Below, piece by piece: positions 3,076 to 34,502 of a stretch of 64,000 bases of DNA. The DNA comes from Cyanidioschyzon merolae. Its lineage: Eukaryota. Location: the NCBI GenBank assembly GCA_000091205.1, contig AP006488.2. One strand, given 5' to 3'. Each line of letters starts with the position of its first letter. Position 1 is the first letter of the stretch. The position numbers were made by a program, and so were the translations under genes. The notes beneath the pieces were generated by a model. That model saw nothing but the letters and a program-made list of their open reading frames with translations. It made no database searches and was not told the origin of the DNA.

Positions 3076-6000
3076 GCCACTGGGGAAGCGCTGCGCAGCT
3101 GCTGGTCCGGCGCCTGTTGCATCTGTCGTCGCAACCGCTATGGGTATCGCCGAAGAGGTCACTGCAGTCGCCACTCCGCCAACACCCATTGGAGCGCTCG
3201 TCGATTGCCCCGCTACAGAGAGCGGCGCTACCGATGGAGGAGCAGAAGCAAACGCCGACGGATACCCAGTGGTCTTCACCACGTGATTCTCCATCGCTCC
3301 ATAATTCCACAGTGCCGTTGCCCGCATAGAGAATGCCTCATAGACGCTAGCCGGTGGTTGCAACAGCGGTATCGGCGGTTGTTGCATCACAGACACGAGT
3401 GACGGAGGCAGCTGCGGCATCCGCCGATGCGAACTCATTGCTGCAACCAGCATGTTGGCATCCAGCTCGCGTGTCGCCCGCTCCGCTGCAGCACGTTCAA
3501 TAATCGCACAAGCGGTATCCAGATTCTCCGCGACAATGCCCTGCACTGCTTGTTCGACGATCGTCTGATCACCACCGATATTAGAAAAAACTGATCTTAA
3601 ATGCCCTATCATGGAAATACGCAAGGGATCCTTGCACGTGATGTGCGCCAGGCCGCTGGCTAACGCCTGTGCCATGCGCTGCCCAGCCATGAGCGCTAGC
3701 TCTCCATCTGCTTGACTAAAGTCCTTGGCGACGAGCTCCCGTGTTGTTACCAGGGCGATGAGTGCGGAACGCTCGGTCACTGGTTGAATAAATTCGCGGA
3801 TTGCTCGATCAATAGCAACTGCTACAATTCTCTTGAGTACAGATGGATTCTGGAACAACTCGGGGTGTTCATTCACACTGATGTACTGGGAGAGGTTGGG
3901 AATCACGGTCACGCCGTCGGCAATCGCTGCGGTTTGTGCTGCAAGCTGGGCAGCTCTTGCAGCCGCCAGCGGAGGCGCCGTGGTCGCCAAGTGCAACGAG
4001 GAGCGCAGTGCGCCCAGATCGAAACTCGAACGATCGTCGGAGCGGTCGGCTCGTGTTGCGCTCGCGAGTGCTCCAGCCGGCGTCGAGGCTAGAGCTGCTG
4101 TTGCTGCACCTGCACCTGCACCTGCACCTGCTGCTGCTGTTGCTGCACCAGGCGGCCGTTCCGTACCGGTTGTCGCCAAGCCCGGTGTTGCCGCTGTCGG
4201 TAACGTCGATGGTGTCGCGCTGTGCGGCGTGAGCATCTCTCGACGTGAACTCGGACTCGCCAAGAGGTCGCTACCCTCTTTGAATGTGAAATCGGGGTTC
4301 TCACGACCCACGGGGCGGCTGCGAGAAGCGAGCAGGTGCGTGGGTTTCACGCTGTGGAGATCGATCTCCACGTTCTTGCACAGCACCTCGACCTCGAACT
4401 TCAAATTCAGTTTCAGATCGGAAAGCTCGTAGATCTCGCGAAGCAGTCCAAAGATGGCGGCGATCCAGGGGTTCGGCAAGCGGAAGATGCGCGACACTCG
4501 ACATGCGTCCAGTATCTTGCAAACAAATGGGATAACGGCAATGAGCAGCCCGGTGGTGTACGCCTGCAAGATAAGCGCTTTGAGGTCCAGATCGCGGCGA
4601 AGAATAGGTCGATTCCGAGCCAGCGTGAGCGAACCGATCCACATCCCGATGTTTTTGAGCACAGAGCGCTCCGCGGTACTGTAGCGGATCTTTTCCGAGT
4701 TCAGCAGAATGCGCACATTATCGTACGATTTGCGGAGAACCAGTGGTATCAGATGGGGTGCATGCTCCAGGAACATGACGTAGGTAGCCTGGAAGTTTGG
4801 CTCGATGGATGCGCGCTTCACCACAATGTACTGTGCAAGATAATCCCAGTACTCCTCGTGAACAATCTCGAAACATTCGCGCACCTTGCTGTCCATGTTC
4901 TCCGGAGAGAGGTTATTGAAAATAAAGTGCACCTTATCCTGAATTGATGTATCAGGAACGCTCATAGGTCGCTGCTCATCGCGCGATGCCCGCAGCAGTA
5001 CCTCTAAGGTGGTCGGTGTCGAGAGACCGAATGCAGCTACGGCACTCGAGGGTGACGCTGATGTCGAAGCACGCTCCGCAGCACCCATAATGTTTTTGTG
5101 CATATCCTGCATTCCTGCGCCGGCTACTGTTTCACCGCGAACTCTTGGGGAAGCACGCTCGGCGCTGGCGCTCGTCGACTTGGCGTCAGCGCCTGTGCTG
5201 AGCTCAACTGCCACTGGTTTCTTCGCGCCGCTGCGGAAAGCATCGGATTCATCTGGTGCCTCTCCGTGGAATGCCTCGTGGCCTTCGGCGCCCTCTACGA
5301 TCGCCAAGACCGATTGGAAAAACTCAGGAGCTGTTTGGCGCAGGTGTGGCATCTGAACGATGTATCTGGCGTATTGGGGCCACTCCGCAAGGCGATGCTG
5401 AAAAGTTCCCAGCGCCATGAGACCAAACTGGAACATCTTATTCGGCGGCGACTTTCGCAGTGATTCCAAAAGATACCGCATGATCAGCGTGAACATCAGG
5501 GAGTGTGGAACCACGATCTCATTTTTGATGAGCGCACCAAAAAGTTCCGCTGTTATGCGGAGCTCTCGATCCGGGTACCGACTGAAAAACCGATACTCAT
5601 CGAGCAGATTGTGAATGATGCAGCGCACCAGCATATCATCCGATTCGGTGTGTGAATTTTGAAGCTCCTGGAGCTCAGTTATCGCTTGCGCTATGGACGT
5701 TTTCTCCGCATAGATGCGTTGGAAAAACTGATTCGCTCGCTCCTCGATCTCTGGTGGAAAAGCATCCTGGCTATCTCCCTCTTTTGCCGAAGTTCGACAA
5801 AGCTGATCGAGCTCTTCGCGCATGCGCTCGTCCACGAGGCCGACGTTCTCTGTCAACACCTTGAGCATCGTAGCCGTAGCCTCAAGCGAAAAGAGCGCAG
5901 CTGCATCTCCCTGTGCCGCCCGCTCGCTCAGATAATTGAGGCATGCCCCAAAAAACTCTGATCCGTGATCATGGAGACGATCGCGTAGCCACTTGCGGAG

Positions 6001-7215: not shown

Positions 7216-9484
7216 ACTAACCGAACAGCGTTATACTTTCCTGCTTGAAACTTTCATTTCCTTGGAAACTGAGAGAGCGCGGTCATCCACGAAGAGCGGA
7301 TAGCGCGCGATGGGTTCCGCGTCATGCGCATGCGCGCTGCCCCGACGACACGCAGAGCGACCCGCGATGCCATGCCGATCAATCTGCGTCTCGGTGCCAC
7401 GTCTGTCCTGTCCAGCAATGTACAGAAGTGTAACAATATATAATTTCATCCCTTCATAGGTAGAAAAGAATCATCGTAGGATAGTTTCGTGCAAGGTCGA
7501 TGATTGAGCAGAGTCGACCTGCGCGTCGATCGTGGACGCATCGCGATCGATCTGCCCGCGAGGCTCGCAGGCGCTCGGCACACGCAAGACACTTGAATTG
7601 CGAGTGGGTACACCATCAGCGTACGCCAGCTTCTTCAAGCGAGGTTCATCGTGAGCGACCAGGGGCGCGTCTTGTGCATGCGCATGGACAGCATGGTCAC
7701 GAGCTATGCGCCGTTGAGTGAGTTTGCCTGCATCCGCTACCGTCGGTGCACATCGAGCTCACGTGAGACAGCGCGTGCATGACATCTGCAAATGCGATAC
7801 ACACGAACGGAGTACGCTTCTGTGCGGCACGTGCGCTAGAAGTGGACGCGCGGCCTTGTAGCAGCTCGATTCGCTTCGTGGCGAGGACGAGGCTTCTGTG
7901 AGTACAGAGCCATGGTGACTTGACGACGATTGCTGTTAGAGTTTGATTCGAACGGGAGATAAAACCCCATCTATATCTGAGGTTACGAACGGCATTCAGC
8001 TTGTTCGCCAGGGTATCTTATCAAATTCGAAAAATTTCTTTGTATGGTTTCGCCAGAGTATCGTAGTATGCTGAACCGTTCCATCTGTTCATGCCGTTCG
8101 ATTCGTGGTTGAACTCTTGTCGTACATTCATGGAGTCGATATTCGAAGTCGAGCACGAAATGCTCAGTTATGCATACGGAATTTCATGATTCTCGGCTTT
8201 CTTTTCGCCGTGGCTCCTTCGACTCTCTGTCGATGGAATTCTTTGCGCCACCGCAGTCAAAATGATTCTCAAGGCCCGAAAACAATGGTTTATTACATAA
8301 CGAATACCGTTATCCCGTTCCTGGATACGCGTCGCCGTGCTTCTCTCTTCCTTACATGCAACATGCTCAAATCGCGCATTCTTCAGATTTTCGAAACTTC
8401 CATTTCAAGGCAAATGATGGATGCAGCGATTCGCACACCACGATGGATGAAGGAAAGATATCGATCTCGTCGCTTGGCGACCTGTCCGCACGCTCATATC
8501 AAATCTACTGACCTTGTCAGGTCAAAAAATGAATTCATATGGAAGGACAAATTCCAATGTGTTTGTGGCTGTCAACTATACGGCATTCCACACCAGCATC
8601 ATCCATCTCACGGAAAATGCTTGCAGACGCTCCCGTCTTGTCTGTGTGCGTGGAGGAGGGCCACGGCCTCGGATTTGAGTCACCATTGCGATCGTATGAA
8701 ATGGAGAATGTGTCATAGGTTTACCCGAAGCGAGAAACGTCGGGTCGAAGTCGCGCGAACTCTCCTGCAGACTGGATTTTCCTTACTGCACTTGTATCAT
8801 TATAGACAGCATCAGGTTCGAAAAATCCTCCACCGAATGAAACATCGTGCGCTTGCACGCACAGCAGGTGACCTACTGGCCTGGGGGATCGCCCAGAGCA
8901 TGCTGGAAATCGTAGTGAGCTGCCCAGCGCGCGCAAACGGAATAGGGCATAAAAGCGAGCCCCCTGTCTCCGTCAAAGGGATGTACACGGCGATGAGGCA
9001 AGCATTCACGCAGCACAGGGCAGCACCTGGACGATGAATCGTGGTGGACACATACGGGAACACCTGACCACAGCCGTATGGCAGCGTTGGAAATGCAGCA
9101 TCCCGACGTTATGCAAGGAATCTGATAATGGCAAGCGATGTATGGATTACAACTCTCGCATGTGCACATCCGCCGACCACAACAGCCGACAACATCGAAA
9201 TTCGAAGTTTTTAACGCTACGATCACCATTCTTTGACTGCTGACAACTCATCCGGGTGCAACGGAGTCACTAGCATATTCGAATCCATAGATAAAAGAGA
9301 AAAATTGAACCAGTTGCCGAAAAACCCGCAAAGACTGGTTCTGATGACAGTAGTACGTGACCCGCAGGTTAGTGTTCATGCGCAAGGTTCAAAGCCTATT
9401 TCCGACATATTCAGAAAAAAGTTTCCCAGAAATCGTTGATCAATCAAAAAATGCCCCATGACTATCGATCGTAAACGTATACCC

Positions 9485-9900
9485 ACTCACAGGTCCCTCC
9501 TGGCCTTTGTCGACGAGCCATCTGCCATTGGCTTCAGCTTTTTCTTGTACACTATGAGTCTGAGAGGCTGCGCTACGAAGTTCGCTTGCCTCATCTCCGC
9601 GGTTGTCGTCGTCAGCACCGCGCATCGTCTGGTATTGATTGCGGCATTGACGTATCGATTCTGGAACTCCCTGCGTGCATTGCAGTCGGCTGGACGCACC
9701 AGTCCAAAGATTACTAAAACTGGTCCACTCAGTGTCGATTTCTTCCCGCCATCGTCCCGTCGGTCGTAAACATTTTTGTCGTCCAATTCCCAGTTTCTTC
9801 TTCTTCCTCGTTACTTGCACTTCTCCATTCTTTGATATGGAAAAAGAGGATTTCTTTCGTGTTTTTCCGGCAGTCGGTGACATCGGCCCTCCGGGAACCT
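9485..9900 (-). mobile_element. Truncated Fanzor/TnpB-like element fragment (3' part with RuvC-III motif), copy C
   Basis: The minus-strand ORF 9487..9786 encodes …NRYVNAAINTRRCAVL…ANFVAQPLRLIVYKKKLKP. It is collinear with the C-terminus of the 34499..35365 ORF (NRDFNAAINVRRCAVL…VNFVGQPLKVELYEKKLEA). Nucleotide homology to copies A and B ends abruptly at ~9485. Confidence 0.55.
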
Positions 9901-10177
9901 CGATTCCCTTATCCGCAATGTTCTTTATTTTTTATTTCTGAAAAAGAGCGTAATTTGAACGCGTCTGCTATAAACCGCGAAAACACGTTTCATGACACGC
10001 ACCTGGCGATTGAACCCAACTGAGGTAAAAGACGATGCTTTGCGGTGGCGTCAACGTCGATACCTCTCGTACGTTAGAGCTTCATGCAAATGATAAGAAA
10101 CGTGTTTCCCTTCAACGCCAAGACGCATATCGTGTTTCATGCCTTCCAGATGTGGAGCTGCACGTATCTGTCGCGCT

Positions 10178-10900
10178 ACAGAAAAGGAACAGAAACGACC
10201 CATTAACTAGCATCTGGATAAAATTTCATTTCCCTCGCTATGGTAACCGTTGAACGAGAGAAAATCTTTCCATATTGCCGAGAGTTCAGCTTACAGGCAA
10301 AGGGTCCTGCGAGCCGAACGAGTCTCCCAGGCTCGTGGTTCATGTCCCTCTCTCTCAGTGGCAGGTGCTTCAATGCGATCTGAGCAACTCGTCTGCAACG
10401 CAATTCATTCTGGGACTGGGAGCGGGTATGCTCCGTCTAGGTGTCGCCCTGCTTTGCGGGAGTGTCCTAGCACACCGCTTCGCGCTGTCGCAGGAAGTAG
10501 GTCCGTTAGCGCAGCTTGCAGGCTCCCGGAATTATTATATACGCCATTCCCGTGTTACGCGAACCACGCCTCGAGCCGACGTCCGCTGTCGTATGGCAAC
10601 GCCGTTCTATCTGCGTGCTGCATCAGTACCAGAGGTGGGAGCGCAATGCCGGATGTTCACGGCGTGCATTCGGCGCACAATAGAACGTCTGAAGCGACCA
10701 GTATATATCCGGGAACAGGTCATGGAACTTGGAGGTAGGGTGCAGCATGATACACGCTTTGCTGAAAGCCATTATCCATCTTGCAGTCTGGGATCCATGG
10801 TCCATGGAAACGTTTCGTCATCGAAGAAAACGGCGCCGCCAGCGACGCTTCCGAACGAAGCACCCATAACGTTCCTCAATTTTCCAATAAAGTCCATAAA
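10178..10900 (+). repeat. ~730-bp interspersed repeat 'R', copy 1 (non-coding; paired with copy at 31983-32720)
   Basis: Collinear 65-75% nucleotide identity with 31983-32720. Shared blocks include gaaaaggaacagaaacgacc…aactagca, attctgggact, ggtgtcgccct, cgcttygcgctgtcgc, gtatggcaacgccgttct, gcagcatgat…gctttygctgaa, ggatccat. Confidence 0.6.
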
Positions 10901-11571
10901 AATCCGATATCGTCTATACCCAATCATCCAAAGCGCCACCATCGTGCAGTGCGCGGGAAAGCGAGTCCCAAAGTGCATGTGCCGGCGGGTGCTGGCCTCC
11001 GATCTGTTCGTGTGCGTGCGGTGCGCCTCCGCAGCAGCACACCATGCAAGGCGGTGCCATCGAGTGTCCAATTTCGGCACCGGGCGGTGTCGTGTTCACC
11101 ATTTCGCGCGCCGTGCGTGTCGTGCAGTCGACTTCCGTACGACAGACGCTGCCTGACGAAACATACTGCACACGCACGATTTCGGTGACTGTCTGTCCTC
11201 CACGCGGTATTGCGTGGAATCGATGCCTAGATCTCCAGGGGTGTGCGTCGAGGAGCAGAGGACCGGAACCTACCCGGTGACTTTGAGTGCGTTGGACTGC
11301 GTGCTGCTAGGTGCACATTTCGCTGAAGAGGAGCGTAGACGGGCGCTGCGTTCCGCGGTTGGAGAGCTTGAGACCAGTCTTGCGCCGTGAGGCGAGTTGG
11401 TCTCTATCTGGGTAGAAGAGACTCTGGGGCGTGAGCTTTTAAGGGGAAGCTCTACGAAGGTGGCGCGCACTTGTGCGGAACGAGCGCATGCGCGACTTGA
11501 AGCAGTCTCGCTGAACTGGGTCTCAACGACAACGATAGCTCTTTGTTTATCAGTTGTTGTGATTTGGAAGA

Positions 11572-13500
11572 ATGGCGAGTACTGGACCTGATTATTTGTT
11601 GTTTCTCGATATTCAGCGACTATTTGGGGATCGGGGTGCTTCTGAAGTCTTCCGTCTCGCGTGGCTGGTTGGTGATCGGCGCGCACGCGTTCTCGATGCC
11701 AAGCAGCTGTACGTGCGACCGGTCTCAGCTGCACTACGTCAGCGTCTGCGATCGCTCTTGCAGCCTTCGGATGCCGGGGCGGAGCGTATTGTAGAGGCAC
11801 TCGAGGCGGAGAGTGACAGGCGAGGCGTATATCCTGTACTCATCAGTAACGATATTGCAGTCATGTATAACTTAGTCGATGCAATCGAGGAGCTGGCCGC
11901 TTATTCGCGTCAAGCTTTTGTACAGTATGATCGTCGATTTGGGACCGTGGTCGCTAGCAAGGGAATTCTGATGCAGCTTGTACACGACTTGGAACAGCAG
12001 CTGCTCCAACAGGCGGCAGTAGGACCCGAATCCGAGACGGTCATTCGGAACTCGCTCGATTTGGTATTAGGGGACTACTACATATGTCCAGTGCGCAGCG
12101 CCGTCGGTGCAGATGCGTTTGCAGCCTGCCGAGAAATGCATACACGATTCGCCCAAGACGGAGGCATGTTTATCCCGGAACACTTTTCTTGGAATAGTGG
12201 ACTCATGCGATCGATGCCGCGAAACGGATACGCCTCGGGTACATTGCCATACATTGGAGCGGATATGATGGTGGGTGGCAGCTCATGGCCCGGAGCATTC
12301 ATGCCTGCACAAAGCGTGGCCATGGGCATTCCTGCGCAAATGCCACCCGTGAGGAGCCACCGAGATGCGCTTGGCATCGGAACGCCATTTGCCGGTGGCG
12401 AATTGCTGGGGACAGCAAGTACCGCTCGAGCACCACAGTCAGTGGTTATCCCGTCCTCGACCGCTAGTGCGGCAAGCACTGTAGCACCGGCAACACCGGT
12501 AGGCAGCGTCGTGCGCCTACGAGGCTTGCCATGGTCTGCGACTACGCGTGACGTTGCTGAATGGATTCGACAGCCGCCCGCGAAGGCCACGATGGGTGCA
12601 GACTCGTCCTTATTGGAGGATTTCATTCGCCGCCCGCTGCAGGTTCTCCCCGGAGGCATTGTGTTCGTCTACAATCACCAGGGGCGCAAAACTGGCGAGG
12701 TCTTCGTTCAGTTTGCCTCTCCAGAAGATGCCTCACGATGCCTCCACAAGCACGAGGATCGCATGGGCCATCGCTATATTGAAGTTTTCCTGTCATCACA
12801 CCAGGACATGTGGAATCTACTCAGCCGCTACGAGGCAAAAAGGGCCGCCCTCGGTCTAGGAGCAGCCGGGAGCCCCGCAGCAACCAGTGGGGCACAAGTA
12901 CGAAACGGTAACCGCACGGATCGTGAGCTGGGGTTGAGCCCAGCTAACGTATCCCAGCAAGCGAGCGCGGTAGCGATGGGTGTCCCGCTTCGTCAACCAG
13001 GCGACTGGACGCCAAGTTCGGCGACATTCCGGCCCGAGATGGTGTCGCACACACCACCGGAAGGGCTTGCGCCTGTCGTCCAGGCTGGAACTTCAGCATC
13101 TACTCGTGAAGGCCCCATGGACCTGATGTCGGCGACACAGTCTCCTTGTCTGCGTCTTTCGGGAGTCGATGCCACCGTCACAGAGCGTGACGTGCATCGT
13201 TTCATAGCCCCGTTCCAGCTGGATACCAGCCAAGGTGCAAGCATACTCGCTTGCTTCGCTGATCATGGGGTCAGAGTGCCTCCGGGGACCACAATCCCTC
13301 CGGTCTTCACGGTGCGCAACAGCACCGGTCAACCGAGTGGTGAATTCACCCTCGTTTTTCAAAACGTATCGGAGCGAGATCGAGCCCTTTGCAAGTCGGG
13401 GCAATTGCTGGGATCCCGTCCAGTCAAACTCTCCAGCATTTCTTGTTTCGAACTCGCTGCCGCCTTGGGTATACTTGGAATCACTAGAGCTGGGGTGTAA
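11572..13500 (+). CDS. hnRNP F/H / GRSF-like RNA-binding protein with three quasi-RRM domains
   Basis: VVRLRGLPWSATTRDVAEWI…GEVFVQFASPEDASRCLHKHEDRMGHRYIEVFLSS matches the qRRM signature of hnRNP H/F (RGLPW…RYIEVF.SS). There is a second RRM-like module near the C-terminus (CLRLSGVDATVTERDVHRFIAPF…EFTLVFQNVSERDRALCKSGQLLGSRPVKL). Confidence 0.75.
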   Translation: MASTGPDYLLFLDIQRLFGDRGASEVFRLAWLVGDRRARVLDAKQLYVRPVSAALRQRLRSLLQPSDAGAERIVEALEAESDRRGVYPVLISNDIAVMYNLVDAIEELAAYSRQAFVQYDRRFGTVVASKGILMQLVHDLEQQLLQQAAVGPESETVIRNSLDLVLGDYYICPVRSAVGADAFAACREMHTRFAQDGGMFIPEHFSWNSGLMRSMPRNGYASGTLPYIGADMMVGGSSWPGAFMPAQSVAMGIPAQMPPVRSHRDALGIGTPFAGGELLGTASTARAPQSVVIPSSTASAASTVAPATPVGSVVRLRGLPWSATTRDVAEWIRQPPAKATMGADSSLLEDFIRRPLQVLPGGIVFVYNHQGRKTGEVFVQFASPEDASRCLHKHEDRMGHRYIEVFLSSHQDMWNLLSRYEAKRAALGLGAAGSPAATSGAQVRNGNRTDRELGLSPANVSQQASAVAMGVPLRQPGDWTPSSATFRPEMVSHTPPEGLAPVVQAGTSASTREGPMDLMSATQSPCLRLSGVDATVTERDVHRFIAPFQLDTSQGASILACFADHGVRVPPGTTIPPVFTVRNSTGQPSGEFTLVFQNVSERDRALCKSGQLLGSRPVKLSSISCFELAAALGILGITRAGV

Positions 13501-14454
13501 ATGACACAACTGCTCGTGAAGACCACCACTAGATAAGCTCATAGTGCAGAGGAGCCCGCGCTTTTCGCTGGCTCGCCCAGCGACTTTATCTTGAGGCAGA
13601 GGTAGTTCACAGTTGAAGGGCTTCCTGGGAACCGAGAGCGGGAGCTCCAGATTCCCATCTTTTCCGGGTTTTGCGCTCTCGTTTGGACTCCATCCAGGGT
13701 AGGCAGTTGCACGTGTCCCGCGGAATCGACTGCGATGTACGGCGGCCTGTCCGCCGTGTTGCTTGACAGCAAAGGTTGAAGAAACGATGTTCATCTGCCT
13801 TCACTCTACACAGAAAACAGCTTCCTTTGAAAGCGGAGACCGGACAATATCTTGGAAATGGACCCTATACAAAACCCCGTAAACAGTGTAGCCAACAATG
13901 GCGACGCATCGACAATGGCACCCTTCCCCAGAAACCAGTTCCCGCAGATGCTGATCTGGCAACCTAGACCCGAGGCTGGTTTGAGGCACTGTTGCAGACG
14001 ATGTTTTTTTTTCTCGTTTGTGCGCATTTGCTACCCTTAGAGTCGGCACTGTTGGCTCACCGGTAACCGGCGAGTTTGATCAACTCGTGTGTCGCACAGA
14101 GCAGAAGCGCGCTTCTGACGTCATGAACGAGTGAAAAACTGTTTCGTATCGATGAAGTAGAATTCAAGTCCCCAAACAGCTTCCTTTTTGATATATGGAT
14201 ATGGGTACGAGCAGGGAAACGGACCCCAGCACCTCTGCAGACGCGCCCGAGTTCCAAGTGCCGTACACCTCTATGAAAGCTCGTCGCACCTGGTTCAGGG
14301 ACGGTGCCGTCGCAAACGCAAAACACACACGAGAGATTATCGAGACATAGCACATTTTCAGGGAGTCGCCAGCTCCTTTAGCTATCCTCGAGTCTTTATG
14401 GCGCAGTGCTTAAGAAGCGAACATGTTTCGCGAGCATAGGGAAAGTGAATATCC

Positions 14455-16165
14455 ATTCAGAGTCACCTACCAGCCTTTTTTGACCGGCTGCCTGCAACCG
14501 GTTTCAGCTTCTTCTTGTACACTTCGAGTATGACTGGCTACCCTAGGAATTTGGATCGCGTCAGCACCTTGGGGCTCTTCCTCAGAACCGCACATCTTCT
14601 GATATTGACAGCGGCGTTCCAGTCTCGGTTCACGACCTCCATGCGTTAGGTGCCACTGACGGAACGCACCAGTGCAGGGGGTCGTCGATGTCGCACCCTT
14701 GGTGCCCTTCTCGCTCTGTCAGCGCTCCGTGCTTTTCTATTGCCGGAGCGCTCCACTGACTCTTCCCGACCGCGACTCTCTGAAGTGTACACCCCAGCGC
14801 ATCCTTTGGATTGTGATTTCTTCAAATGAACGCTCTTGTTTATGCCTCTAGGTAAGGTCCGTTTCTGGAGAAGACGGACTTGCGGAAGAAAGACGACATC
14901 CACCCGGGCGTGACACTGTGTGCTGAAAGCTTCAGCGATTCGCCCAGTGGAGCGATCATCAGCTTGCAGGATAGAAAAGGCTCCTTCGATTCTGTTCAGC
15001 CACGGAGCGTACGGAGGAATGGAACGCAGCTCGAATCCGCGGCAGCATCGGCCAAAGCTCGAACGTATGCGACGTGGAGGAATACCACGTTCTCCCATAG
15101 AGGGATGCTACCAGGCGTCAGGGACAAAGGTCTTCAACAATTCGATAAAGTTGTTGCTGTAGTAGGAGCCTTCCCTACGAGCGAAACTGAGCACGCTACT
15201 GGAATCCGCTTCAGTTAGAACAGATGATGATATCCTCGTTCTCTTCGAATTCGATCGTTCATACAACGTGCGCCCTGCGCTGCGGATACCTGTAGATGCT
15301 CCGATCGTTTCGGCCGAAGCAAGTCTCATGGACTGAAACAACAACAAACCAGTACTACTCTGCTTCATACAGATCGCGACGCTCTAGAGACACTGCCGTT
15401 GCGACTTTGGTGCAAGATGGCCATGCATGAAATCGGACGGTTTGGCGACTGAATCGCTGTGTTTTCAGGACCACACAAACGAGATGTTGATAAGCAGCGA
15501 CGCCCATGGTGGCTTCTACCGTCGCTCCAGCTTCCCCTGAAATGATCAATCGGTCGTTTTCTACCATAGATCCGAAGCACGCTTTAAGAATGTCTTTTTT
15601 TAGCGCGGAGCGCATCCACTTGTTTGTCACTGTGTTCCCCAACCATCTGCGTACTGTGGCATGACTGACCAGAAAGAGGAACGCAGTCCTCGTTCTACTG
15701 TTCCGTACTAAATGCGTATCCAACGGGCAACTCGTCTACGATTGATTCAGTACATGGCATCCGGAATTCGATCTCCTGCTATATACCACATCTGAGGGTG
15801 AATCAAGATTGACTTGGGAGACTATGTTCATCGAACGAGTGCTGCAGAGCGTATCCATCGCTTGAACCGGTATTAGAGTTCGAATTTTTTGGAGATGTTT
15901 GTCTGATTGGATACGGCATCTCGGGTAGTTTCTAAAACCGGTTTATCGCTGCAGGTAATTCCAAAGTTTGGTACCTGTAATGCAGTTTCCTTCTCGTTGC
16001 GCGATGATTCCAGAGCGTAGGGCGCGGTGCATCGACCCCGTGAACCGCACGGTACGCCAACACTGTCCCGTTTCCGGATGACGCTCGATGCAGAATGCTT
16101 TCCTGCCCGGCACACGTACTGATCGAGCCTGCACTGGTCGGCAGAGCATCGGAATGGGGCTCATC
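14455..16165 (-). mobile_element. Degenerate Fanzor/TnpB-like element, copy B (pseudogenised; multiple short ORFs)
   Basis: The reverse complement of 14600-14640 encodes VVNRDWNAAVNI (RuvC-III). Region 14460-14620 has ~70% nucleotide identity to 9490-9650. The minus ORF 15355..15723 has …ENDRLIISGEAGATVEATMG…, collinear with the RuvC-I segment NDFVVGADPGSTNIITIA of copy A (catalytic D->E). The region is broken into 4+ ORFs by frameshifts and stops. Confidence 0.5.
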
Positions 16166-16949: not shown

Positions 16950-18236
16950 CTATTCAATACGCCCGGGGTTTGCGTTACGACTCTTGTGCGCATCGCTCGT
17001 CGCCGATAACCGCTCTGGAAGCTGGTCCACATGAAATGGGAACATTTCGCCCTCTGCTATCGCTCGAATGCCTTCACGATAGCTGGGGTACCACAGATCT
17101 GCCGAGCCGCCCAGCAGGACTGCCTTTGCCGTGTGGTTGCGGATGCGCTTCTGGAGGCGGGATTCCGAAGAAATCGCGCTTAACTGACCCGTTCTGGACT
17201 GCGCTGCATAGTCCTCAACCTGAGCACGCGTCGCAGGTTCATTGTCCACCAGGTTGAAGACGCCCTTTGCTCTCTGTGCAACACCGCTGAGCAGGAGACG
17301 CGCAGCGTCGGCAACGTGTATTCGATTCACCAGCGTATCACGCGGTCGCCGCGATCCTTGCCTAGTTTCGCTGTGCTCGTGGTAGGCCAACATCGTGTCC
17401 AGGACACTGCGACGTGTCCATCCACGCTTGCCTCTTAGCGATGGTGGAATCGGACCGTATACGGCCCCAAGTCGGAAGCGGGCGAGTCGCACTTCCAGTC
17501 GATGTGCGAGCTCTCCTGCTCGCTGTTCAGCCTGCCAACATGCCGCTGCTTTCTCTGTGGATAAGTCGAGTGGAGCGCTTTCGTCGATCCAGGACTCTCC
17601 TCCAGGCGCATACAGACTCGTGCTCGACAGGAGACCTATCCACCGTAACGAGGGGAGGAGTCCGTCTCCGACTACGTGCTCCAACCAGGAAATCCATTCG
17701 CCGTGCACAAGTACGTGTGTGATCAATTTCAGGTGATCTGGCTCAACACATTGTGAAAGCGACAGGCAAACTCGATCTTGGAGCAGCAGGCGATAGTCAG
17801 CGACCTCCGAACCCTGACGATAACACGCAACGACGCTTTGTGGCAAGGCTGGAGCCGAGTCTTCCGCGCCTGAATGTGGCTGCGGGCTTGTTTCACAGTG
17901 CTTTCCGTGCACCCAAAGGCAAGCCACTGCAGTGGTAACATAGCCCAGAGGCACAATGAGTAGGCTTGTTGGCGAGGTCTCGCGCTCAGTGACGAGCCTC
18001 CACGAGCTGAGACGGGACGCGAGCCCAGGACGTTGCAATCTACTGAGCGCTCTCAAGGGAAAGCGGTGACCTGGTAAAGTCCTCGTCGGCTGCTGCACGA
18101 AAAGAAGAGCAGGGTATGGTCTACCACGCCTTTGAACAGTGGTTTTCGCGGTTTGCATCAGTACGGCAAACGTCGAGCGTTCTTGGGAACGAGTTGTTGC
18201 TGCGAGCGTATACACCCTTGACAGAATAAAGCGCAA
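16950..18236 (-). CDS. SDR39U1/YfcH-like NAD-dependent epimerase family protein (possibly degenerate)
   Basis: The C-terminal two-thirds is collinear with YfcH-type epimerases (…RLGAVYGPIPP…RIHVADAARLLLSGVAQRAKGVFNLVDNEPATRAQVEDYAAQ… vs WIHIDDMV…GPFNMVSP.PVRN.EFA.AL). The N-terminal GxxGxxG Rossmann motif is not recognisable (LLIVPLGYVTTAVA). Confidence 0.35.
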   Translation of the reverse strand: MRFILSRVYTLAATTRSQERSTFAVLMQTAKTTVQRRGRPYPALLFVQQPTRTLPGHRFPLRALSRLQRPGLASRLSSWRLVTERETSPTSLLIVPLGYVTTAVACLWVHGKHCETSPQPHSGAEDSAPALPQSVVACYRQGSEVADYRLLLQDRVCLSLSQCVEPDHLKLITHVLVHGEWISWLEHVVGDGLLPSLRWIGLLSSTSLYAPGGESWIDESAPLDLSTEKAAACWQAEQRAGELAHRLEVRLARFRLGAVYGPIPPSLRGKRGWTRRSVLDTMLAYHEHSETRQGSRRPRDTLVNRIHVADAARLLLSGVAQRAKGVFNLVDNEPATRAQVEDYAAQSRTGQLSAISSESRLQKRIRNHTAKAVLLGGSADLWYPSYREGIRAIAEGEMFPFHVDQLPERLSATSDAHKSRNANPGRIE

Positions 18237-20179
18237 AAGGACCTCTTAGCCAGCTCTGGTGGACACACCCAAGTGTGGAACTCTTCCAGCTATCATGAAA
18301 ACCAGCCTTTGCGGATTCTTTCTGCGACTGCTTCCCCTGCTACCGCTCATATGTCCGGCCAAGTGACGTCAGTCTCTGCATTCACACCTGCACGGCTTGC
18401 AGCACCCGACGAATATTCGCAGGAGTTTTCAAGTCCAGATTTGACCAGTTCCGACTCTCGTTGACGCATGTCATGAACTTTTGGAATTTGCGATTCATGT
18501 TTCGTCTGCCGTTCACAGCTTGTTTGTTTACAGCAACTGTGCATGATTCGCAGCCATGACATCTGATTGTGGTGAGGTGTTCTCCTATGCCAAGCACAGC
18601 TCCTCCTGTTCCTGTTCCTGTTCCTGTGAGGTCTCCCCTATCGCACGTGAACGCTTGCTCCGTCGCTCAGTGCATGCGAGTGACGGGTACAGAGGGCTCG
18701 TCACGATACTATACTCCCTTTTGCGCGTCTGCTACCGTACGCTGGGATCACGGGTTTCTTCTAGGCGACATCCTCAGGGGTTACGCTGCACGCTGTATGC
18801 CCAGGCATACGCTGGTCTATTTCACAGCGGATCTGTGGAACGCTGTGGTATCCATGACAGGAACAAGTACCGGAAGAATGATACAAGCGAGAGGCCGCTA
18901 AAATGAAAACCTTCTCTCCATGTACACTCCATTCATACAAAGCAGCGACGCACTCCACATTGAAAGCGCTCGTTACGATCACTCGAGTCCGAGCCCAGGA
19001 CCCTCATCCACGTAAACGGAAAAGACGCTCGCGCCCCTGCGAGCATACTCCGAGAAGGGCTTCATGCTGCTGTCTAATGCTGTGCCGTGGATGACGGCAA
19101 CGACAGATCGATTTGTCGCTCGAACTGCAAGGATTCTTTGATGTGACAAGTTTCGTGAGCTTGCGGCATACGCTTGTGAAGAGCCCGTAACGAAACGATA
19201 CCGAGTTATTCGTCCTCGTCAGTCGAGCGGCGCGTATCGCTGTGCCCACGAGTTGCCTTGAAACGTACAGATCAAAAACTTGGAGGATGCGTCATTGGGG
19301 CGTGCTTTTCTTAAAAAAACAGAAGCGTCAAGGCCGATCCCTCCGCCTTGGATACTGGTATCGATTATTTTACGAACCCCTGTTCCGGGGCGTCGCAAGC
19401 GATCGTAGGTCCGGTGACGAAGCGCACCCCGACGACAACACGTCGAAGGAGCCGCTTCCAAAACTACGACCGAGAATCCGAAACCTATGCATCCATCGGC
19501 AAGTGCATATGCCTGCGCTTTGTGTTTCTCGATGTTGCCCATTCGAAACCAGATTAGAGAAAACGAAAAGCCATGAAAAGCGCTAGCAATGCAGTGTTCC
19601 AGGTTCACCTAACACTGGTATAGAGGATGCCTGCACAACAGCGCTGATGCAAAGTTCGTACGGTATCCCAATTTTCCTCGCCATTGCCTGATGTATAAAA
19701 CGTGTTACCTGGATTAGAGTGAATGAGTGACACTTACCAGACGTCTTGCATTTCCAGGAAAAATGGCTTCTGGGAACGCACAACGCACCCTTCTGAGTGC
19801 CTGCAGCGTTCACGTTGATGCGTTCACATAACAAGTTGCAGGTTTCGCCTCAGCCGGTGACAGAATAGGGCGCAAACTCTTTTCCGTGCGGCGAAAGATG
19901 GGCACGCGTGCATCACCTGGGCACGAAGCATCCGAAACTGATGCATTCCACCAAAAAAAGTGTCACTGCAAAACTGTGCCGGTTTCACTGCGTCTCTGTG
20001 GCACAGTCGCTGTCCAGTTCGCAGGCTCGGGGGCGACGAGACCCGTGTTCTCTCGGAGGATACCCTGGACCGGCGCTGGCAGTCGAGACAACCCGGTAGG
20101 GGCTCTCTCGCCCAGAGACGCCTCGTAGATGCGGCGAGTTGCATCCAGTTGCAACAAGCGACTGTGGATCGCCGTCCGT

Positions 20180-22526: not shown

Positions 22527-22836
22527 GCCCTTCTCGAGCGCAGTACACTGCGACCTTTTCTGAACCGCTGTTGTTACCAGCTTCAACAGCCTTAGCCTCT
22601 AAGGTTTGGCTTTGGCGACCCAGTGCAGTGCCCTTCTCGAGCGCAGTACACTGCGACCTTTTCTGAACCGCTGTTGTTACCAGCTTCAACAGCCTTAGCC
22701 TCTAAGGTTTGGCTTTGGCGACCCAGTGCAGTGCCCTTCTCGAGCGCAGTACACTGCGACCTTTTCTGAACCGCTGTTGTTACCAGCTTCAACAGCCGTA
22801 GCCTCTAAGGTTTGGCTTTGGCGATCCAGTGCAGCG
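22527..22836. repeat. 103-bp tandem repeat x3 in the divergent intergenic region between the laforin-like gene and EDC4
   Basis: The unit gcccttctcgagcgcagtacactgcgaccttttctgaaccgctgttgttaccagcttcaacagccttagcctctaaggtttggctttggcgacccagtgcagt recurs at 22527, 22630 and 22733. It produces three overlapping near-identical artefactual ORFs (MKLVTTAVQKRSQCTALEKG…). Confidence 0.9.
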
Positions 22837-25694: not shown

Positions 25695-28600
25695 AGGACT
25701 TGAGTGGAAGTACGCTTTAGGTCCGATCGTAAATTTCCTATTGCGCCTTGTTCTAATGTAAGTGACACAAAGGACTTGAGAAGAGGTACGGTTTAGGTCT
25801 GATCGGAGATATCCCGTGGCAGACTTGCCTTCGACAATATCCTGGAACGCATCGTGCGACGAGCGCCATACCGCGCACTACGATGTTCGCAGAGCAGTGG
25901 ACCCTGGAACGCATGTACCAGTACTTCTTGATTCGGCTTTCTGTCTCGCTGGTATACGAGAAAAGGGAGTGTCATTCGCAGATCGAAGAAAGGTCGCGGA
26001 AAGACTTGATGGTACAACTGCGGCCTTGCGAAAGAAACACAGGCAAACTTCAAGTTACCAATTCAACGTTCAGCAGGTAGATAAGCAATGCTTATCGTAG
26101 CAGCTATTCGGCAAGAAAAGCAACCAAACGGGAATGCCCCGAACATTATCCGCATGACTGTTTCCTCGTCGATCCATGGTTGGCGGCACATTCCCTGCGA
26201 AAAACTGCACGAGAGGCAATAGGATATGGAGTTTCCGTATCTTAGATACGAACAAATATGAAGACGCACGGAGGGTAAAGGAAATAACGTGCGTCCAGAT
26301 TGGTTTCATACTAACTTGCAAACGCTCAGAAAAAGAGCGATGCTTGTTCATCTCACTCGTTGAGCCTGCATTCGAAGGAAATGCTAGACATGTCCATGGG
26401 AACTCAAGTAGCGGCAAACATGTGTTTCTAAATAAAAGACAAGCGACAGTGAAGACTGCATCAGTCCTAGCGTCAATGGGATCATATGGTTGCCTCTATA
26501 TCGCCACACGGATCGGAATGTTCAACAAATTATGCTTCTTCATCGGAGCATTTCTTGGCTTCTTCTTTGCACAGCTTTCTCACCTGATCTCTGATAAGAT
26601 GGTGTTTTATCGCGCCAAAGCAGTCGTGGAGCATGCAGCTGCTACTGATATTGAGCTGCTCTTCATGCCAGCCTATTCTATCCAGTTCAGTCGAGTCAAA
26701 AGCGTGTTCTCTGTTGTCGAACGCCATCATTTCGCGCAGAGATCAATGGACTGGTCGTTTGAATCCGTGACACCTTTATTCGACATGTCGACCTCTGTTG
26801 TCATTAACCCTTAAATGCTCCGTTGTGTCTTTGCTCATGCACCAAAGAGAGTGCGATGCAACCGTGCTGCCCGTGGGCGTACTCGCGGCCGAGAAGGCAA
26901 TGGGAATGTACTTGAGGCATCATTGGTACGTTCTAGAAATGACGAGTTTGTTTTCGAGTTTCCTCCCGGAGCTTCTTCATCCCGAAGGAGGCACCGAATA
27001 TGGACTATACCGTGCACAACAATGCAATGCAGCTATGAAAATAAGAAGACGAAGAAAAGCATGAAATTTCAGAGGAAATGACGAACAGGAATCGGAACGA
27101 ATACCTATCGCAATGGAAAGAACCGTTTGAATCCGTGTTCACGGCCACGGCACAATGACATATCGACGACAAGAATCTTTCAGACTGAGAGCTATGCGAC
27201 ACCATCCAGGTTTGCGCAGCTTCCCTCGCCTTGATGCACGTCATCGAGCAACTTTTCACAAGAGATTACGACGCGTGACTGCCACCTGTCCACATTCTAC
27301 CGGAATTCTAGGATCGTACTTTCGTACGAGTACGCAAACGATGCTCGGGGCAGAAGCTGTAGTACAGCCTGACCGTAGGATCAGGGATTCGTAGACACGC
27401 TTCCCAGAGTACGAGTTCTTGCCGCCGCGCCACGTCAGTTAATCTCGCTTCTACAGCTCGGTGCCAAAAAGTAGCAAACGAACCTAAAAAACCACGGGCT
27501 GGTCAATTTCGAGCGCCTCATGAGTCGCACCCCGTGCGCATTCGAGTTTCATCTTACCTACCCAGAAAAGTCGACGTTGATGGAAGAAATTCATGGGGCG
27601 AAGATCATGGCGATTGATCAGCGAAATGGTCCAAGAGCAGAGGATGGTACATAGCTCTGGTGAGGTGTCCCAACGAGAGCAAGAGTCGCTTCAGAGCGTC
27701 CAGGCTAACCCTGTTGCGCTTCGTCTTGGGCCGTCGGGCGTTGTATCCTGTAAATAAGTGAAACGTAACGCATGTCTTGCTTGCATCAAGCGCTGCGACG
27801 TCATTCTGAACAGATCCCACCGGAGCACGGCAGACATACTACCCGAATCCGAGTACGCTCGCCTCCTCAAGGTTCTGTCCGAACATGTCCCAGCAGGTGA
27901 GACTGAGACCCATCGCATTGCAGCAGATATGTCTATCGTATACGATATGGTCTTGTCGTGATCTTCGGCGCGTATCTGCATGCAGATATGAAGCAGTGAA
28001 CCAGCACTGCGAAGGGCATTGGCGAAGCTCATGCAACGACTCGCGTTTACAGGCAGAAATTGGAAAGAGGCTGACATTGCAATGGAACCCCACCGAGTAT
28101 CCATCCGCATGCACTTTGCCAAACCGAGGCCTGAGTCGAGCATCGAGATTCGTTGTCAGCCGTAAAAGGTAGATGAAGAGAAAGGCTTCACGGCGGACGT
28201 GGATCTCGGGTTGAAGGCCATCATGGTCGTCGCCGTACCTCTGGATCAAGAGGACAGCACCGATGGCCGCAGCGGTAAGCAGAGGAAGCTGCTCAAAATC
28301 ATCCAGGGCTCTATTGGATCCAGTGTCGGGCACAGTGGACGCCAGCAGGCGAGCCACCAGGTGAAATGGTGGTGTCAGGACGCCTCGCGACGCTCTGACT
28401 ACGCGATCGATCCCAGCTGGATATGTTGTGTGCTTCCAACTCAGAGCGTACATGAGCGTCCAAATAACGAGCGCCGATGATCTTCAGCGGATGTCCATGA
28501 GATCGTCCAGCGTTCGCCAACGGTTTCTATTGTCAAGCGGCATACATCTGCCATCTTGTTCCGTTCGCTGGAAAAATGGCATGTGGGACATGTCGTGTAG

Positions 28601-29449
28601 TATCACGGGAATCTGTTTCGTTGGATGAGCTGTTGCACACAAAGGCTGCATTGCCGCTCCTTCGACGAGTGCGTACGCTAACTGCATGAATCGATTCTCT
28701 CGCAGGCCCATCGATGTGTGCGGGACGCCATACCCACATATAATGGGTACGAGAATGCCCGTTGAAACTTTTAGAGACTATGTGCATAAAACCGAGTCGA
28801 GTGCACGAGATCATGGTCTATGGACAGCGTACCATACGTCAGATGGCAAGGCAATGGAAAGCGAGAAGCGCGCTATCGTATGATTCCATCACCGGCAAGA
28901 ATACGCGCAAGCACACACTGCACCGAGTCCCGGAAAAAACGTCGATCAACATCCGGACACTTTGCCTAGTTCAGGAGCATCCAGCGCTTACGTGTCGAGA
29001 AATGCGTCTCGAAAGAATCGTTCAGAAGTTTGTATAGGCATTTTACTGAAACGCTGGTGACTTGCGGTGGTATTCAAATCAGTTGCCCCGACAAAGCGGA
29101 CTGGATTCCAACCCAGAACTGGGAGCTGAAACGGCACCGTTCAACTGCCCAGTGAGAGAATGAGAGCAGAGCGCCGCATACTCACATCGAGAACGATTCT
29201 CGCAGGCAACCGATAGACGATCATGGGGTTCCACCATTCGATATTCCTGCGTATGTCACGGACTCGTCATTCCGAGGCTGGTTCGTGCCCCAGCTCTGCC
29301 GTTCGGTACCTGGATACCTGGGTCAGGCAGCACGACCCAAACATTGCTGGGTACCGACCACGAAACGTTGCTTTACGCCAGGAGAGTCGCAGTCGCGATG
29401 TTCCTCGCGAAAACGCCCCGCCATACACACACAAACTGCGGATCGTGGC

Positions 29450-31777: not shown

Positions 31778-31982
31778 GACCTCCAGAACGTCTCAAACTA
31801 CGCACTGTTTACCAGGTAGGGTCAAACGCCCCCACGATCAGGCCCGAAAGACTCTGCCTAAGCGCTCGTGTTCGGCTCTGCGCTCTCCCGAACGTCGAGC
31901 GAATGACCTGTTGCGTAACTGCTGCCGCGGCGGCGGCAGCAGAGGCGAATGATGAGACCCAGCGCTTACCGAGTGCGCACTA

Positions 31983-32720
31983 TAGGAAAAGGAACAGAAA
32001 CGAACCTCTAACTAGCAAAGAGATCACATTTTCTTTCCTTCTCTATGATAAACATTAAAAGGGGGAACATGTTTTCGATATTTTAGAACGTTTACGTTAT
32101 CGGCGGTAGGTTCCGCGAGCCGGACAAGACTGTCTGGGCTAGTGTATCACGCTCGTCCCGGTGGCGGGTGCTGTAGTGCGGTCTGAGCTGCAACTCGTCC
32201 AAACTGCAGTTTATTCTGGGACTTGATAGATTAGATCTCTTCCGGGTGTCGCCCTCGTTGCGGTGGACTCCACGTATATCGCTTTGCGCTGTCGCGTGCA
32301 GTGGGTTTGTCTGCGGAGCTTGCTGGCTCCGAGAATGATCATATACTCCGACTCTGTGTCAGGTGAAGCATTCCTCGATCCGACGCCCTCAGTAGTATGG
32401 CAACGCCGTTCTGTCTCTGTTATGCATCGGCATCAGCGGATTAGAGGGTAAGGCGGGTGCATCAACGCATGCACCCGACGAATGACAGGAAGCACGAGAC
32501 GAGTAGTACATCCGAAAGGAAGTATACGTAATGGAATCTGGAGTTAGAATGCAGCATGATGGATGCTTTCGCTGAATCCGATACCCATGCATAGCGCAAC
32601 CTCGGATCCATTGTCAATGTGAGTGTTTTTCCATCGGAAAAATGAAGCACGTAGCTCTATCGTACAAATTGTAACGATGTTCAAGTCGTAGAAAAGTACA
32701 TTGTTTGTCCTCAATTGTGT
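31983..32720 (+). repeat. ~730-bp interspersed repeat 'R', copy 2, directly 5' of the Fanzor-like copy A
   Basis: See copy 1 (10178-10900). The same order of conserved blocks ends at the start of the Fanzor-like N-terminal ORFs. Confidence 0.6.
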
Positions 32721-33743
32721 TTCAACCTTCACACTAATGTATTCAAGTGCTTTTTCGCGCGTAATAGCTGTCCCATCCAAAGCGGTTTCGGTTTTTATAT
32801 TGAAAAAGGAAAGTTACGGAAGGGGAATTGGAGGATCCTGGGCGCCAGTGTCGCCGGCAGCCCGAAAAAACGAAGAACAGTGCCAAGTCCAAAGGAACAA
32901 GAGAAGAAGAAGAAGAAGAAGAAGTAAAAGCGGGAGGCCCTACGTCAAAGGCTACACAAAAGACGACGGTACGACGAGATGGCGGTGAAAGCCTGTCTTC
33001 TTCAACATACCAAGGATCCGTACAGGGAAAACGTTCGAGAGGCAATCTGGAACCGTGTCGAGCCGAACTCAAGCGGTGTCCGTGACGCTTCCCAAGGAAT
33101 GGCGCATTTCCTAAGGGAATGGTATCACGACGTTACGGACACCAAAACAGTCGAGGTTCTGGAAGAAATTTTCAACAAAACCTTTATTCATCACCGGATG
33201 CTTGGCACCGGGGAAACGTCTAGGTGAAATGAGCGAGTTCATGCCCTCCACAAAATTTACGCCGAATTCCGCTTCGACGGTACTCGATACAGGGGGGGAT
33301 TCGAATATTTACACCTACGGGGCGATGAAGTACCTCACCAGTCTAAAGAACCATTTAACAATGAACCCCAAAAACTTCGATCGCCAGCATGAAAAGGAGA
33401 TCGAATTCATCGACGAGACGACATCACTCAGGGGCATGAACGAGGATTCCGTCATCCGTACGGTTATACAAGAGCATCGTGCTGTCTTGGGACTGGCGAA
33501 TCCAGCAGAAAAGATATCAGAGTGGAAAGAAGATAAGGAACGATACTATCGCCTCATCCTACGGTATTTCGTGTTTTTTGGCCGAGAACTCGAACGCAAG
33601 GCAGAGATGAAGCTGAGTGGGGAAAAAATGAAGAATGGGAGAGACGAAAGGCTGCGCTTCTGGGTAAGAGCTTAAACATCGTTCCGTTGTGAAACATCAA
33701 GTCACATTTTAAGACTATCGACTGCAGAGTCCTTCATGACATC

Positions 33744-34502
33744 ATGAAGGAGATCTGTCCGGAGTTCGATGAACGGAAGACAGAGTTCACCGCTGAAAAC
33801 CGGGAGACGTACTTGAAGAGTATCCTCAATTTCAAACGTCTCAAAGTAAGCAAGAAAAAGAAATTCACTGGGATGATCGAAACCGATGGAGTATCTATAT
33901 GTGTACACGATCGGCGGTTGAAGGTGGATCGTCCAGTCCTGCCTTCAGCCTCGCCCGTGACGAAGCATGAAGGTGAGAAGGAGGCGGATCCTGCGATGCA
34001 GGAGTTGGAGGATAACGACCTTGGCGTTGACGTGGCGAAGCATGAAGAAAAGGAGAAGGCTGTTCCTGTGACTCAGGAGATAGAGCATAACGACCTTGTC
34101 GTTGACGTGACGAAGGATGAAGAAAAGAAAGAGGCGGATCCTGTGATGCAGGAGATGGAGGGGAACGACCTTGTCGTAGGCGCGGCGAATCATGAAGATG
34201 AGAAGGAAGCGAATCCTACCACGCAGAAAGCGCATGAGAACGACTTTGTAGTTGGCGCGGACCCCGGAAGCACAAATATCATAACCATCGCTGCTCCCAA
34301 GCTCGCGGAAGATGGTATTGACGGGAACTTGCGTCAGAAATATATGCGTCTTCTGCGGCTCTCGAGAGCGAGATACTATCGACAATCGGGAATCATGAAT
34401 GCGAGGAAGAAAATCGTTACGTGGAATGTAGGAATGAAAGAGCACCTGGAAGCTCTGAGTGAGGTGACGAGCCGAGGAGCGGACTTTCGAGCTTTTCGGT
34501 GA
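33744..34502 (+). pseudogene. Fanzor/TnpB-like nuclease, middle segment with RuvC-I motif and 25-aa tandem duplications
   Basis: GADPGSTNIITIAAPK is preceded by four 25-aa acidic repeats (…KHEGEKEADPAMQELEDNDLGVDVA / KHEEKEKAVPVTQEIEHNDLVVDVT / …). It ends in a stop that is frame-shifted relative to the next segment. Confidence 0.5.
33956..34255. repeat. 75-bp tandem repeat x4 inside the Fanzor-like ORF
   Basis: The period is 75 (cgtgacgaagcatgaag… at 33956, 34031, 34106, 34181). It encodes 25-aa repeats ending in NDLVV/NDFVV. Confidence 0.85.

Follow-up and report, generated by a model that had tools for sequence, protein, structure and literature searches.

Short copies of a Fanzor nuclease element in a Cyanidioschyzon merolae contig: probable non-autonomous relics of the published family CMe-1A

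A stretch of 64,000 nucleotides (nt) from contig AP006488.2 of Cyanidioschyzon merolae (GenBank assembly GCA_000091205.1), called the window here, contains decayed copies of a transposable element whose open reading frame (ORF) encodes a nuclease with RuvC motifs: a nearly full-length copy (A), two much shorter copies on the minus strand (B and C) and a fourth, very degraded one (D). We conclude, with a probability of about 90%, that CMe-1A, a Fanzor1 family already published for this species, is the source of B and C, both of them dead and non-autonomous relics, and that the two belong to an older subfamily, C as a copied mini-element and B as part of a composite with a probable DDE_3 transposase relic. 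On this reading, neither B nor C would be able to make a nuclease.

The family comes from Bao and Jurka (2013, Mob DNA 4:12, PMC3627910), where CMe-1A is the one Fanzor1 family listed for C. merolae. According to that paper, the consensus is 3169 bp long and is represented by ~150 copies, each ~80% identical to it; the element encodes a protein of 734 amino acids (aa), CMe-1, has no terminal inverted repeats (TIRs) and is listed with undetermined target-site duplications (TSDs), and its 5' 635 bp are a separate repeat, TE-N2_CMe, with ~70 copies. The published CMe-1 consensus protein, taken from the supplement of the paper, was run against the window by tblastn and gave the following matches:

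Copy A: CMe-1 aa 10–724 at 32841–35140, 62–86% identity in five shifted high-scoring segment pairs.
Copy B: CMe-1 aa 613–640 and 655–726 at 14797–14460, 61–68% identity, E 4e-24.
Copy C, 5' piece: CMe-1 aa 2–21 at 9913–9854, 65% identity.
Copy C, 3' piece: CMe-1 aa 660–731 at 9690–9475, 49% identity, E 3e-13.
Copy D, the fourth relic: CMe-1 aa 465–610 at 28302–28739, 24% identity, E 4e-4.

Judged by these sequence matches, copies A, B, C and D are relics of the published CMe-1A family. Published family and window copies have in common the host, the protein, the size class (~3.2 kb), the lack of TIRs, a TE-N2-like 5' part (0.68 kb in the window) and old copies at ~80% identity to the consensus. 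Unlike standard CMe-1A, copy C is an amplified internal-deletion mini-element, copy B is joined to a probable DDE_3 transposase relic, and in both the end of the ORF and the 3' tail have diverged; in copy A, as in a minority of the related loci, the TE-N2-like part runs opposite to its orientation in the published consensus. We did not find the mini-element, the DDE_3 fusion, the diverged tail or the flipped TE-N2 part described in the portion of PMC3627910 that was available. The discovery value is nonetheless small, the family, its host, copy number and age having been published in 2013 and the window copies being dead; the gain is a corrected local annotation of what B and C are and where each of them ends, with the RuvC-I of B recognized as a misread transposase relic.

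A first-pass annotation had reported additional degenerate copies of copy A's mobile, multi-copy nuclease, and this much was borne out. The RuvC-III motifs that it placed on the minus strand at ~9700 and ~14620 are real, being matched by a hidden Markov model (HMM) of the family protein on that strand at 9690–9493 (E 3e-15) and 14645–14541 (E 4e-11). Around RuvC-III the three copies share DNA at 66–70% identity over 198–340 nt. Self-comparison of the window by blastn aligned 9479–9676 with 14449–14646 (70.2% over 198 nt, E 1e-18), 9495–9676 with 35141–34960 (66.5%, E 3e-7) and 14466–14797 with 35141–34805 (66.5% over 340 nt, E 6e-16). An element DNA HMM and consensus were built from 24 full-length environmental copies, and this model matched 14802–14461 (E 2e-45) and 9714–9491 (E 2e-20) by nhmmer, so that blastn and DNA HMM alike extend the similarity beyond the RuvC-III peptide into flanking DNA, the opposite of what the first-pass annotation had named as its refutation. 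Related loci, given L-numbers here, are metagenome contigs chosen for containing Fanzor copies; at least 398 such loci were found.

Copy C consists of two pieces:

9433–9714, minus strand: 3' piece of copy C (the nhmmer match starting at 9714, with a tail shared with B/C-type copies to ~9433).
9801–10183, minus strand: 5' piece of copy C (nhmmer 10098–9801, model positions 3–288, E 1e-35; the rest from alignments).

The 5' piece comprises the left end of the element, the 5' untranslated region (UTR) and the first ~21 codons; the 3' piece comprises the last ~75 Fanzor1 codons, corresponding to CMe-1 aa 660–731, followed by a subfamily-specific 3' tail, and its RuvC-III motif is degraded to NRYVNAAIN, with loss of the catalytic Asp. 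A 99-codon ORF at 9487–9786 is a fusion relic within copy C. The arrangement identifies copy C as an internal-deletion mini-element from which ~2 kb between the two pieces has been deleted, the left end thus being joined directly to the ORF end and tail, beside a TE-N2-like repeat. L016, L041 and L045 share this architecture: model positions ~352 and ~2268 adjoin in them, and the match stops at ~2514–2520. Because copy C can be aligned colinearly with these three loci across the junction and the flanks of the four are different, the mini-element itself appears to have been propagated.

Copy B is shorter than had been annotated, and its upstream neighbor is of a different kind:

14416–14802, minus strand: Fanzor-derived part of copy B (nhmmer 14802–14461; homology to L017 extends to 14416).
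14803–15825, minus strand: probable Tc1/mariner/IS630-like (DDE_3) transposase pseudogene upstream of copy B (Pfam; colinearity with L017).
26176–26814, plus strand: second DDE_3-like transposase relic, upstream of copy D (Pfam DDE_3, E 1.8e-6).

The Fanzor-derived part retains the last ~115 codons, interrupted by three in-frame stops and one frameshift, and then the subfamily-specific tail; its RuvC-III motif is intact in sequence (VNRDWNAAVNI). Homology to the family stops at 14802 with the HMMs, and the extent of 14455–16165 given to copy B in the first-pass annotation therefore has to be withdrawn. Upstream of that point, Pfam DDE_3 (PF13358) matches with E 7.5e-5 and 3e-5 (24.4 bits for the latter, under the gathering cut-off of 28.6). 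The relic has the C-terminal motif IPPYAPWLNRIEGAF in the region matched by DDE_3, and its first-Asp motif is degraded to VSVHETCF where the copy in L017 reads FVFSLDETCF; IPPYAPWLNRIEGAF and the FSLDETCF of L017 are both in keeping with Tc1/mariner/IS630 transposases. The peptide IISGEAGAT at ~15530, previously taken for a RuvC-I strand in which Glu stands in place of Asp, is matched by neither the protein HMM nor the DNA HMM of the family and lies within this probable DDE_3 transposase relic. We read the stretch IISGEAGATVEATMGVAAYQHL of the relic, which aligns with NLREANASIVATTGVSVSQQL of L017, as a probable helix-turn-helix part of a transposase and not as RuvC-I. Across the junction between transposase and Fanzor sequence, the interval 15825–14416 remains colinear with L017 (67.6% over 1421 nt, E 2e-119), and the flanking genes are different; since the colinearity crosses the junction, B is part of a 1.41-kb composite repeat in which, here and elsewhere alike, the last Fanzor codons lie downstream of a probable DDE_3 pseudogene. 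The second relic, at 26176–26814, scores 28.3 bits against the same cut-off and is weakly colinear with the B-linked one (E 0.002).

Homology among copies A, B and C had been said to stop at one point (9485, 14455 and ~35155), which was taken as the terminus of the element directly after the ORF stop. The shared stop of the alignments is genuine, both B and C ceasing to match the canonical model at position 2514 (local alignments near 9485, 14455 and 35150); the terminus is not, the canonical element ending at ~35246 and the repeat unit of B extending to 14416. Past position 2514, the canonical element has another ~95 nt, in which the stop codon is followed by a conserved 3' UTR with a hairpin at its end; at the right end of copy A the coverage profile drops at ~35240. 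A DNA HMM of the tail only left these last ~95 nt unmatched in B and C. Instead, a variant tail, ...GCnAGTGGGTATnCnTTTAC...GAAACnTTTTTCG, extends for ~55–60 nt in B and C and in no fewer than seven further copies. Because copy C follows the CMe-1 consensus at the protein level to aa 731, this tail is better read as a diverged ORF end than as a break. On their sequence divergence, B and C are accordingly placed in an older subfamily, set apart by its ORF end and 3' tail, and it is this divergence that makes local alignments to A stop at a single point. In one further locus (L043), two 3' fragments with the variant tail lie head-to-head ~130 nt apart, at 5043–5271 (minus) and 5404–5653 (plus).

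Both ends of the element carry potential secondary structure. The 3' UTR at the right end is conserved over ~75 nt and closes with a hairpin, the stem of which varies in sequence from one subfamily to another and stays paired, in three versions (CGTCGTTCGA/TCGAACGGCG, AACGTTTTTC/GAAAGACGTT and GTTCTA/TAGAAC); the hairpin stands just before the boundary in most copies, including the window (35170–35246) and ~55 loci (for example, L023 4531+, L013 1685+ and L006 3063+). The element opens on the left with the palindrome GCGCTCAGTGAGCGC, of which L017 has the compensatory version GCGCGTGCACGCGC. With TnpB-only elements of the IS200/IS605 group (IS1341-type), the window element shares a single TnpB-like ORF, the lack of TIRs and this layout of a left palindrome and a right-end hairpin with compensatory variants. 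It is unlike them in its eukaryotic host and in a Fanzor1-type protein with a long N-terminal extension. No Y1 (HUH) TnpA was seen in the element or its flanks, the single long ORF being that of Fanzor1 and the Pfam scans giving no TnpA-like match.

The nuclease itself is assigned to Fanzor1, the eukaryotic TnpB-like proteins with a RuvC nuclease, because profile matches, profile–profile alignment and the fold of a modeled relative agree. Read across its frameshifts and one stop, copy A gives a protein of ~730 aa with the motifs GADPGSTN, VDEFRT and NRDFNAAINV, and the family consensus and the near-intact copy in L012 have the corresponding D-E-D RuvC motifs GADPGNTN, VDEFRTS and NRDFNAAINI. 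Copy A thus has all three, copy B only RuvC-III (NRDWNAA), and in copy C the Asp is gone (NRYVNAA). A database search gave 277 relatives; the best 120 of the 277 are 64–87% identical and all metagenomic, and none of these 120 is a protein from an NCBI annotation. An exhaustive representative search raised the number of relatives to 1441, many of them 600–700 aa long. A profile of 80 diverse full-length relatives matched the Fanzor1 proteins PpFz of Parasitella (E 5.3e-21) and SpuFz of Spizellomyces (E 5.8e-13) in PDB, and hhalign joined the window family to this profile with a probability of 100% (E 4.6e-99).

The structural part of the case comes from P0123, the closest full-length relative (699 aa, ~40% identical to the window family). 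Its AlphaFold2 model has a mean predicted local distance difference test (pLDDT) score of 88 and a predicted template modeling (TM) score of 0.87, and with Foldseek its top seven PDB matches are all Fanzor1 (SpuFz, PpFz and GtFz; E 4e-17 to 2e-15). TM-scores normalized by query and target were 0.60–0.63 and 0.69–0.72 for four SpuFz matches and 0.52–0.57 and 0.50–0.58 for PpFz and GtFz; Cas12, Fanzor2 and TnpB scored far below Fanzor1. The window family is therefore like the solved Fanzor1 proteins (SpuFz1, 8GKH and 9CEU; PpFz, 9CF0; GtFz, 9CER) in profile-level homology and D-E-D RuvC motifs and, as predicted for its ~40%-identical full-length relative, in overall fold. It is unlike them in that identity is 12–16%, the window copies are pseudogenes and the sequence after RuvC-II reads TSYTHHELGC...C and not as a clear CxxC...CxxC zinc ribbon. 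Pfam PF26935 (DUF8286) is placed on the N-terminal part in the precomputed annotation of P0009, P0014, P0015, P0017 and others and at L001 481–1239; it was not returned by our own Pfam scan.

TnpB and Fanzor proteins are RNA-guided RuvC endonucleases, the guide RNA coming from the right end of the element, and the structure 8GKH is a solved Fanzor1 complex with omega RNA and target DNA. By homology, an intact element of the window family would encode an RNA-guided DNA endonuclease of ~734 aa. Open frames of that order exist in environmental copies, L012 3183–5516 and L006 831–3146 having 778 and 772 codons, respectively, with all three RuvC motifs intact, and from these sequences the family may be functional in some populations outside strain 10D.

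Several observations weigh against this interpretation of the family and its short copies. Neither the window ORFs nor the family members matched a TnpB or Fanzor model when scanned against Pfam and NCBIfam (in relatives, PF07282 reached only sub-threshold E-values of 0.0023 and 0.071), and PDB searches with phmmer of one member and with a profile of 26 close members returned nothing meaningful, the homology to Fanzor1 emerging only with the profile of 80 diverse full-length relatives. For a family member itself, the alignment was shallow, and the AlphaFold2 model made from it was of low quality (pLDDT 53) and was set aside, so the fold evidence rests on the ~40%-identical relative. The canonical CxxC zinc finger is not evident in the family sequence, which between RuvC-II and RuvC-III reads DEFRTSYTHHELGCTLQRVEMEKCQRSPE, with His/His/Cys/Cys and without the CxxC pairs. 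The case for a guide RNA originating at the right end is argued purely by analogy with 8GKH and with TnpB and Fanzor biochemistry. Furthermore, the loci in which the mini-element and the composite recur are environmental relatives and do not come from strain 10D.

The most serious other proposal is compatible with our reading and adds an origin to it: the composite of B and the locus of D would be remnants of a two-gene Tc1/mariner-type transposon, DDE_3 followed by Fanzor1, from which CMe-1A descended or by which it was mobilized. At each of five places, a DDE_3 relic is directly followed on its own strand by a Fanzor relic:

Copy B: 14803–15825 (DDE_3) and 14416–14802 (Fanzor).
Copy D: 26176–29001.
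L017: 1003–2356.
L041 8167–8870 / L045 8339–9047.
L074 7282–8078 / L081 8203–9020.

A precedent exists in oomycetes, for which a supplementary table of PMC3627910 records mariner-linked Fanzor1 elements. Like the B and D loci, PUl-1 and PUl-2 of Pythium ultimum have a DDE-type transposase and a Fanzor1 side by side on one strand, according to that source; the window loci differ from them in having no detectable TIRs or TA duplications and two badly degraded genes, with only ~115 Fanzor codons left in B. Searches for inverted repeats flanking the composite in the window and in L017 gave none that was convincing, and TA target duplications were not found for the DDE_3 relics, the copies being so degraded that these are weak negatives; around B and C, around L016 and L017 and around the TE-N2-like repeat, the search for TIRs likewise turned up nothing convincing. 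Moreover, both DDE_3 matches in the window fall just below the Pfam cut-off, the loci were picked for their Fanzor copies, transposons cluster in islands so that nested insertion could give the same adjacency, and B and L017 represent the same composite and hence are not independent events. We regard the two-gene ancestor as a tentative idea that is more probably wrong than right. Equally speculative is its corollary that CMe-1A descends from, or was moved by, a Tc1/mariner-type DDE transposon and that its amplified short derivatives keep the left end and the last ~250–300 nt, a putative guide-RNA-coding stretch by analogy with other Fanzor elements. If true, an orphan Fanzor1 family would gain a transposase and a superfamily, and the derivatives would reveal the parts that a Fanzor element requires in cis. 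The question raised is a modest one, namely whether the adjacency of DDE_3 and Fanzor reveals the missing transposase of an orphan family.

Far less plausible is the initial picture of three decaying copies of one recently active autonomous nuclease, with B spanning 14455–16165 and carrying a RuvC-I motif with Glu, and with a common terminus after the stop. Its RuvC-III motifs and 66–70% DNA identity are real, and the alignments do end at nearly the same consensus position. The region upstream of 14802, however, has no homology to the family and holds a DDE_3 relic homologous to L017, the canonical end lies at ~35246, and B and C are full of stops. Identity to the consensus of the 24 environmental copies is 77–88% for A and 66–70% for B and C, and every copy in the window has stops or frameshifts. 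These sequence data argue against recent activity here, and the identities fit the published ~80%; of the first description of B and C as degenerate copies of a mobile, recently active family, the degenerate copies stand and the recent activity falls.

Even less likely, in our view, is that B and C were inserted independently as 5'-truncated products of target-primed reverse transcription of a retroelement. Both do keep the 3' end of the ORF and have lost most of the upstream sequence, but C also retains the 5' end of the element, the deletion junction of C and the fusion junction of B recur at other loci and are hence inherited structures, no reverse transcriptase is encoded in the element and no poly-A tail was seen. 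A chance or low-complexity likeness confined to a short peptide motif, for which one could cite the shortness of the fragments, is practically dismissed by E-values of 1e-18 to 2e-45 over 200–340 nt and by matches colinear with the published CMe-1 protein.

The copies had been held to explain two gene-free, lower-GC islands at 7.2–11.5 kb and 13.5–20 kb, and they do so in minor part: Fanzor-derived DNA makes up ~0.75 kb of the first and ~0.39 kb of the second. The first island comprises copy C, the TE-N2-like repeat beside it and another repeat family at 8174–9138; in the second, 13.5–16.9 kb contains the 1.41-kb composite and 18.3–19.6 kb further repeats. Nor is the second island free of genes, since the annotated gene BAM79520.1 lies within 16950–18236 on the minus strand. 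The low-GC islands are graveyards in which several old transposon families are mixed, and intergenic low-GC islands of C. merolae are hereby documented as nests of such families. The repeat at 8174–9138 is dispersed, occurring also at 19063–19480 and 43140–43222 and in L004–L007, L036, L051/52, L062 and L069. A 1.28-kb stretch at 18273–19552 is 81% identical to L016 853–2133.

The plus-strand copies and the TE-N2_CMe-like repeat, designated X, are located as follows:

32646–35246, plus strand: copy A, a near full-length CMe-1A pseudogene (nhmmer, three-frame reading).
31961–32642, plus strand: X by the 5' end of copy A (nhmmer, E 5e-186).
10152–10829, plus strand: X (681 nt) abutting the 5' end of copy C (nhmmer, E 2e-185).
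27454–29001, plus strand: copy D, a very degraded Fanzor1 relic (protein HMM, nhmmer, tblastn, three-frame reading).

Copy A has at least four frameshifts and one in-frame stop. Within its Fanzor ORF, a 75-nt tandem repeat at 33956–34260 encodes units of HE(D/E)EKEADPxxQEVEDNDLVVD, the number of which varies among copies. Copy D keeps traces of RuvC-I, RuvC-II and RuvC-III; it is matched by the protein HMM at 28175–28372, 28635–28739 and 28801–29001 and by nhmmer at 27454–27540 (E 0.016).

The X by copy C is 68% identical to 31976–32642 over 677 nt (blastn, E 1e-51). Like its counterpart in the published CMe-1A consensus, it is inverted with respect to the Fanzor sense strand; the X by copy A has the opposite orientation to that consensus in our survey of orientation across loci. 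Compared by eye, the start of the published CMe-1A DNA consensus matches the X consensus end as its reverse complement; an attempt to relate the start of X to the variant tail by alignment was uninformative. X stands beside the Fanzor 5' end in both orientations; about half of the copies lack it. It is forward in L003, L047, L048, L070 and L072 and reverse in L006, L008, L018–L020, L041, L045, L049, L051–L053, L055, L062, L075, L078 and L083. In L048, X lies between two head-to-head Fanzor copies, flanked by a 45-nt inverted repeat (1708–1752 and 2426–2470); we considered this repeat as a TIR and rejected it, as it is merely the two Fanzor 5' ends facing each other. Fragments of X also occur in the window at 56840–57109 (plus strand, E 4e-37) and 63511–63650 (plus strand, E 5e-18).

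The rest of the window has long intronless ORFs on alternating strands and a GC content of ~55%. The MCM5 ORF at 35331–37637 is 100% identical to MCM5 of C. merolae 10D, the next best match being Cyanidiococcus at 82%, and the ORFs at 11572–13500 and within 16950–18236 (minus strand) match the strain 10D proteins BAM79519.1 and BAM79520.1 exactly. Because all three match exactly, the sequence identifies the window as nuclear DNA of C. merolae 10D. A trypanosomatid source, which the long intronless ORFs had suggested, was discarded in view of the alternating gene orientation and the MCM5 match. Rfam and tRNA scans of the whole window gave no match. Three further tandem arrays, unrelated to that in copy A, are located at 22527–22834, 54798–55150 and 63015–63357.

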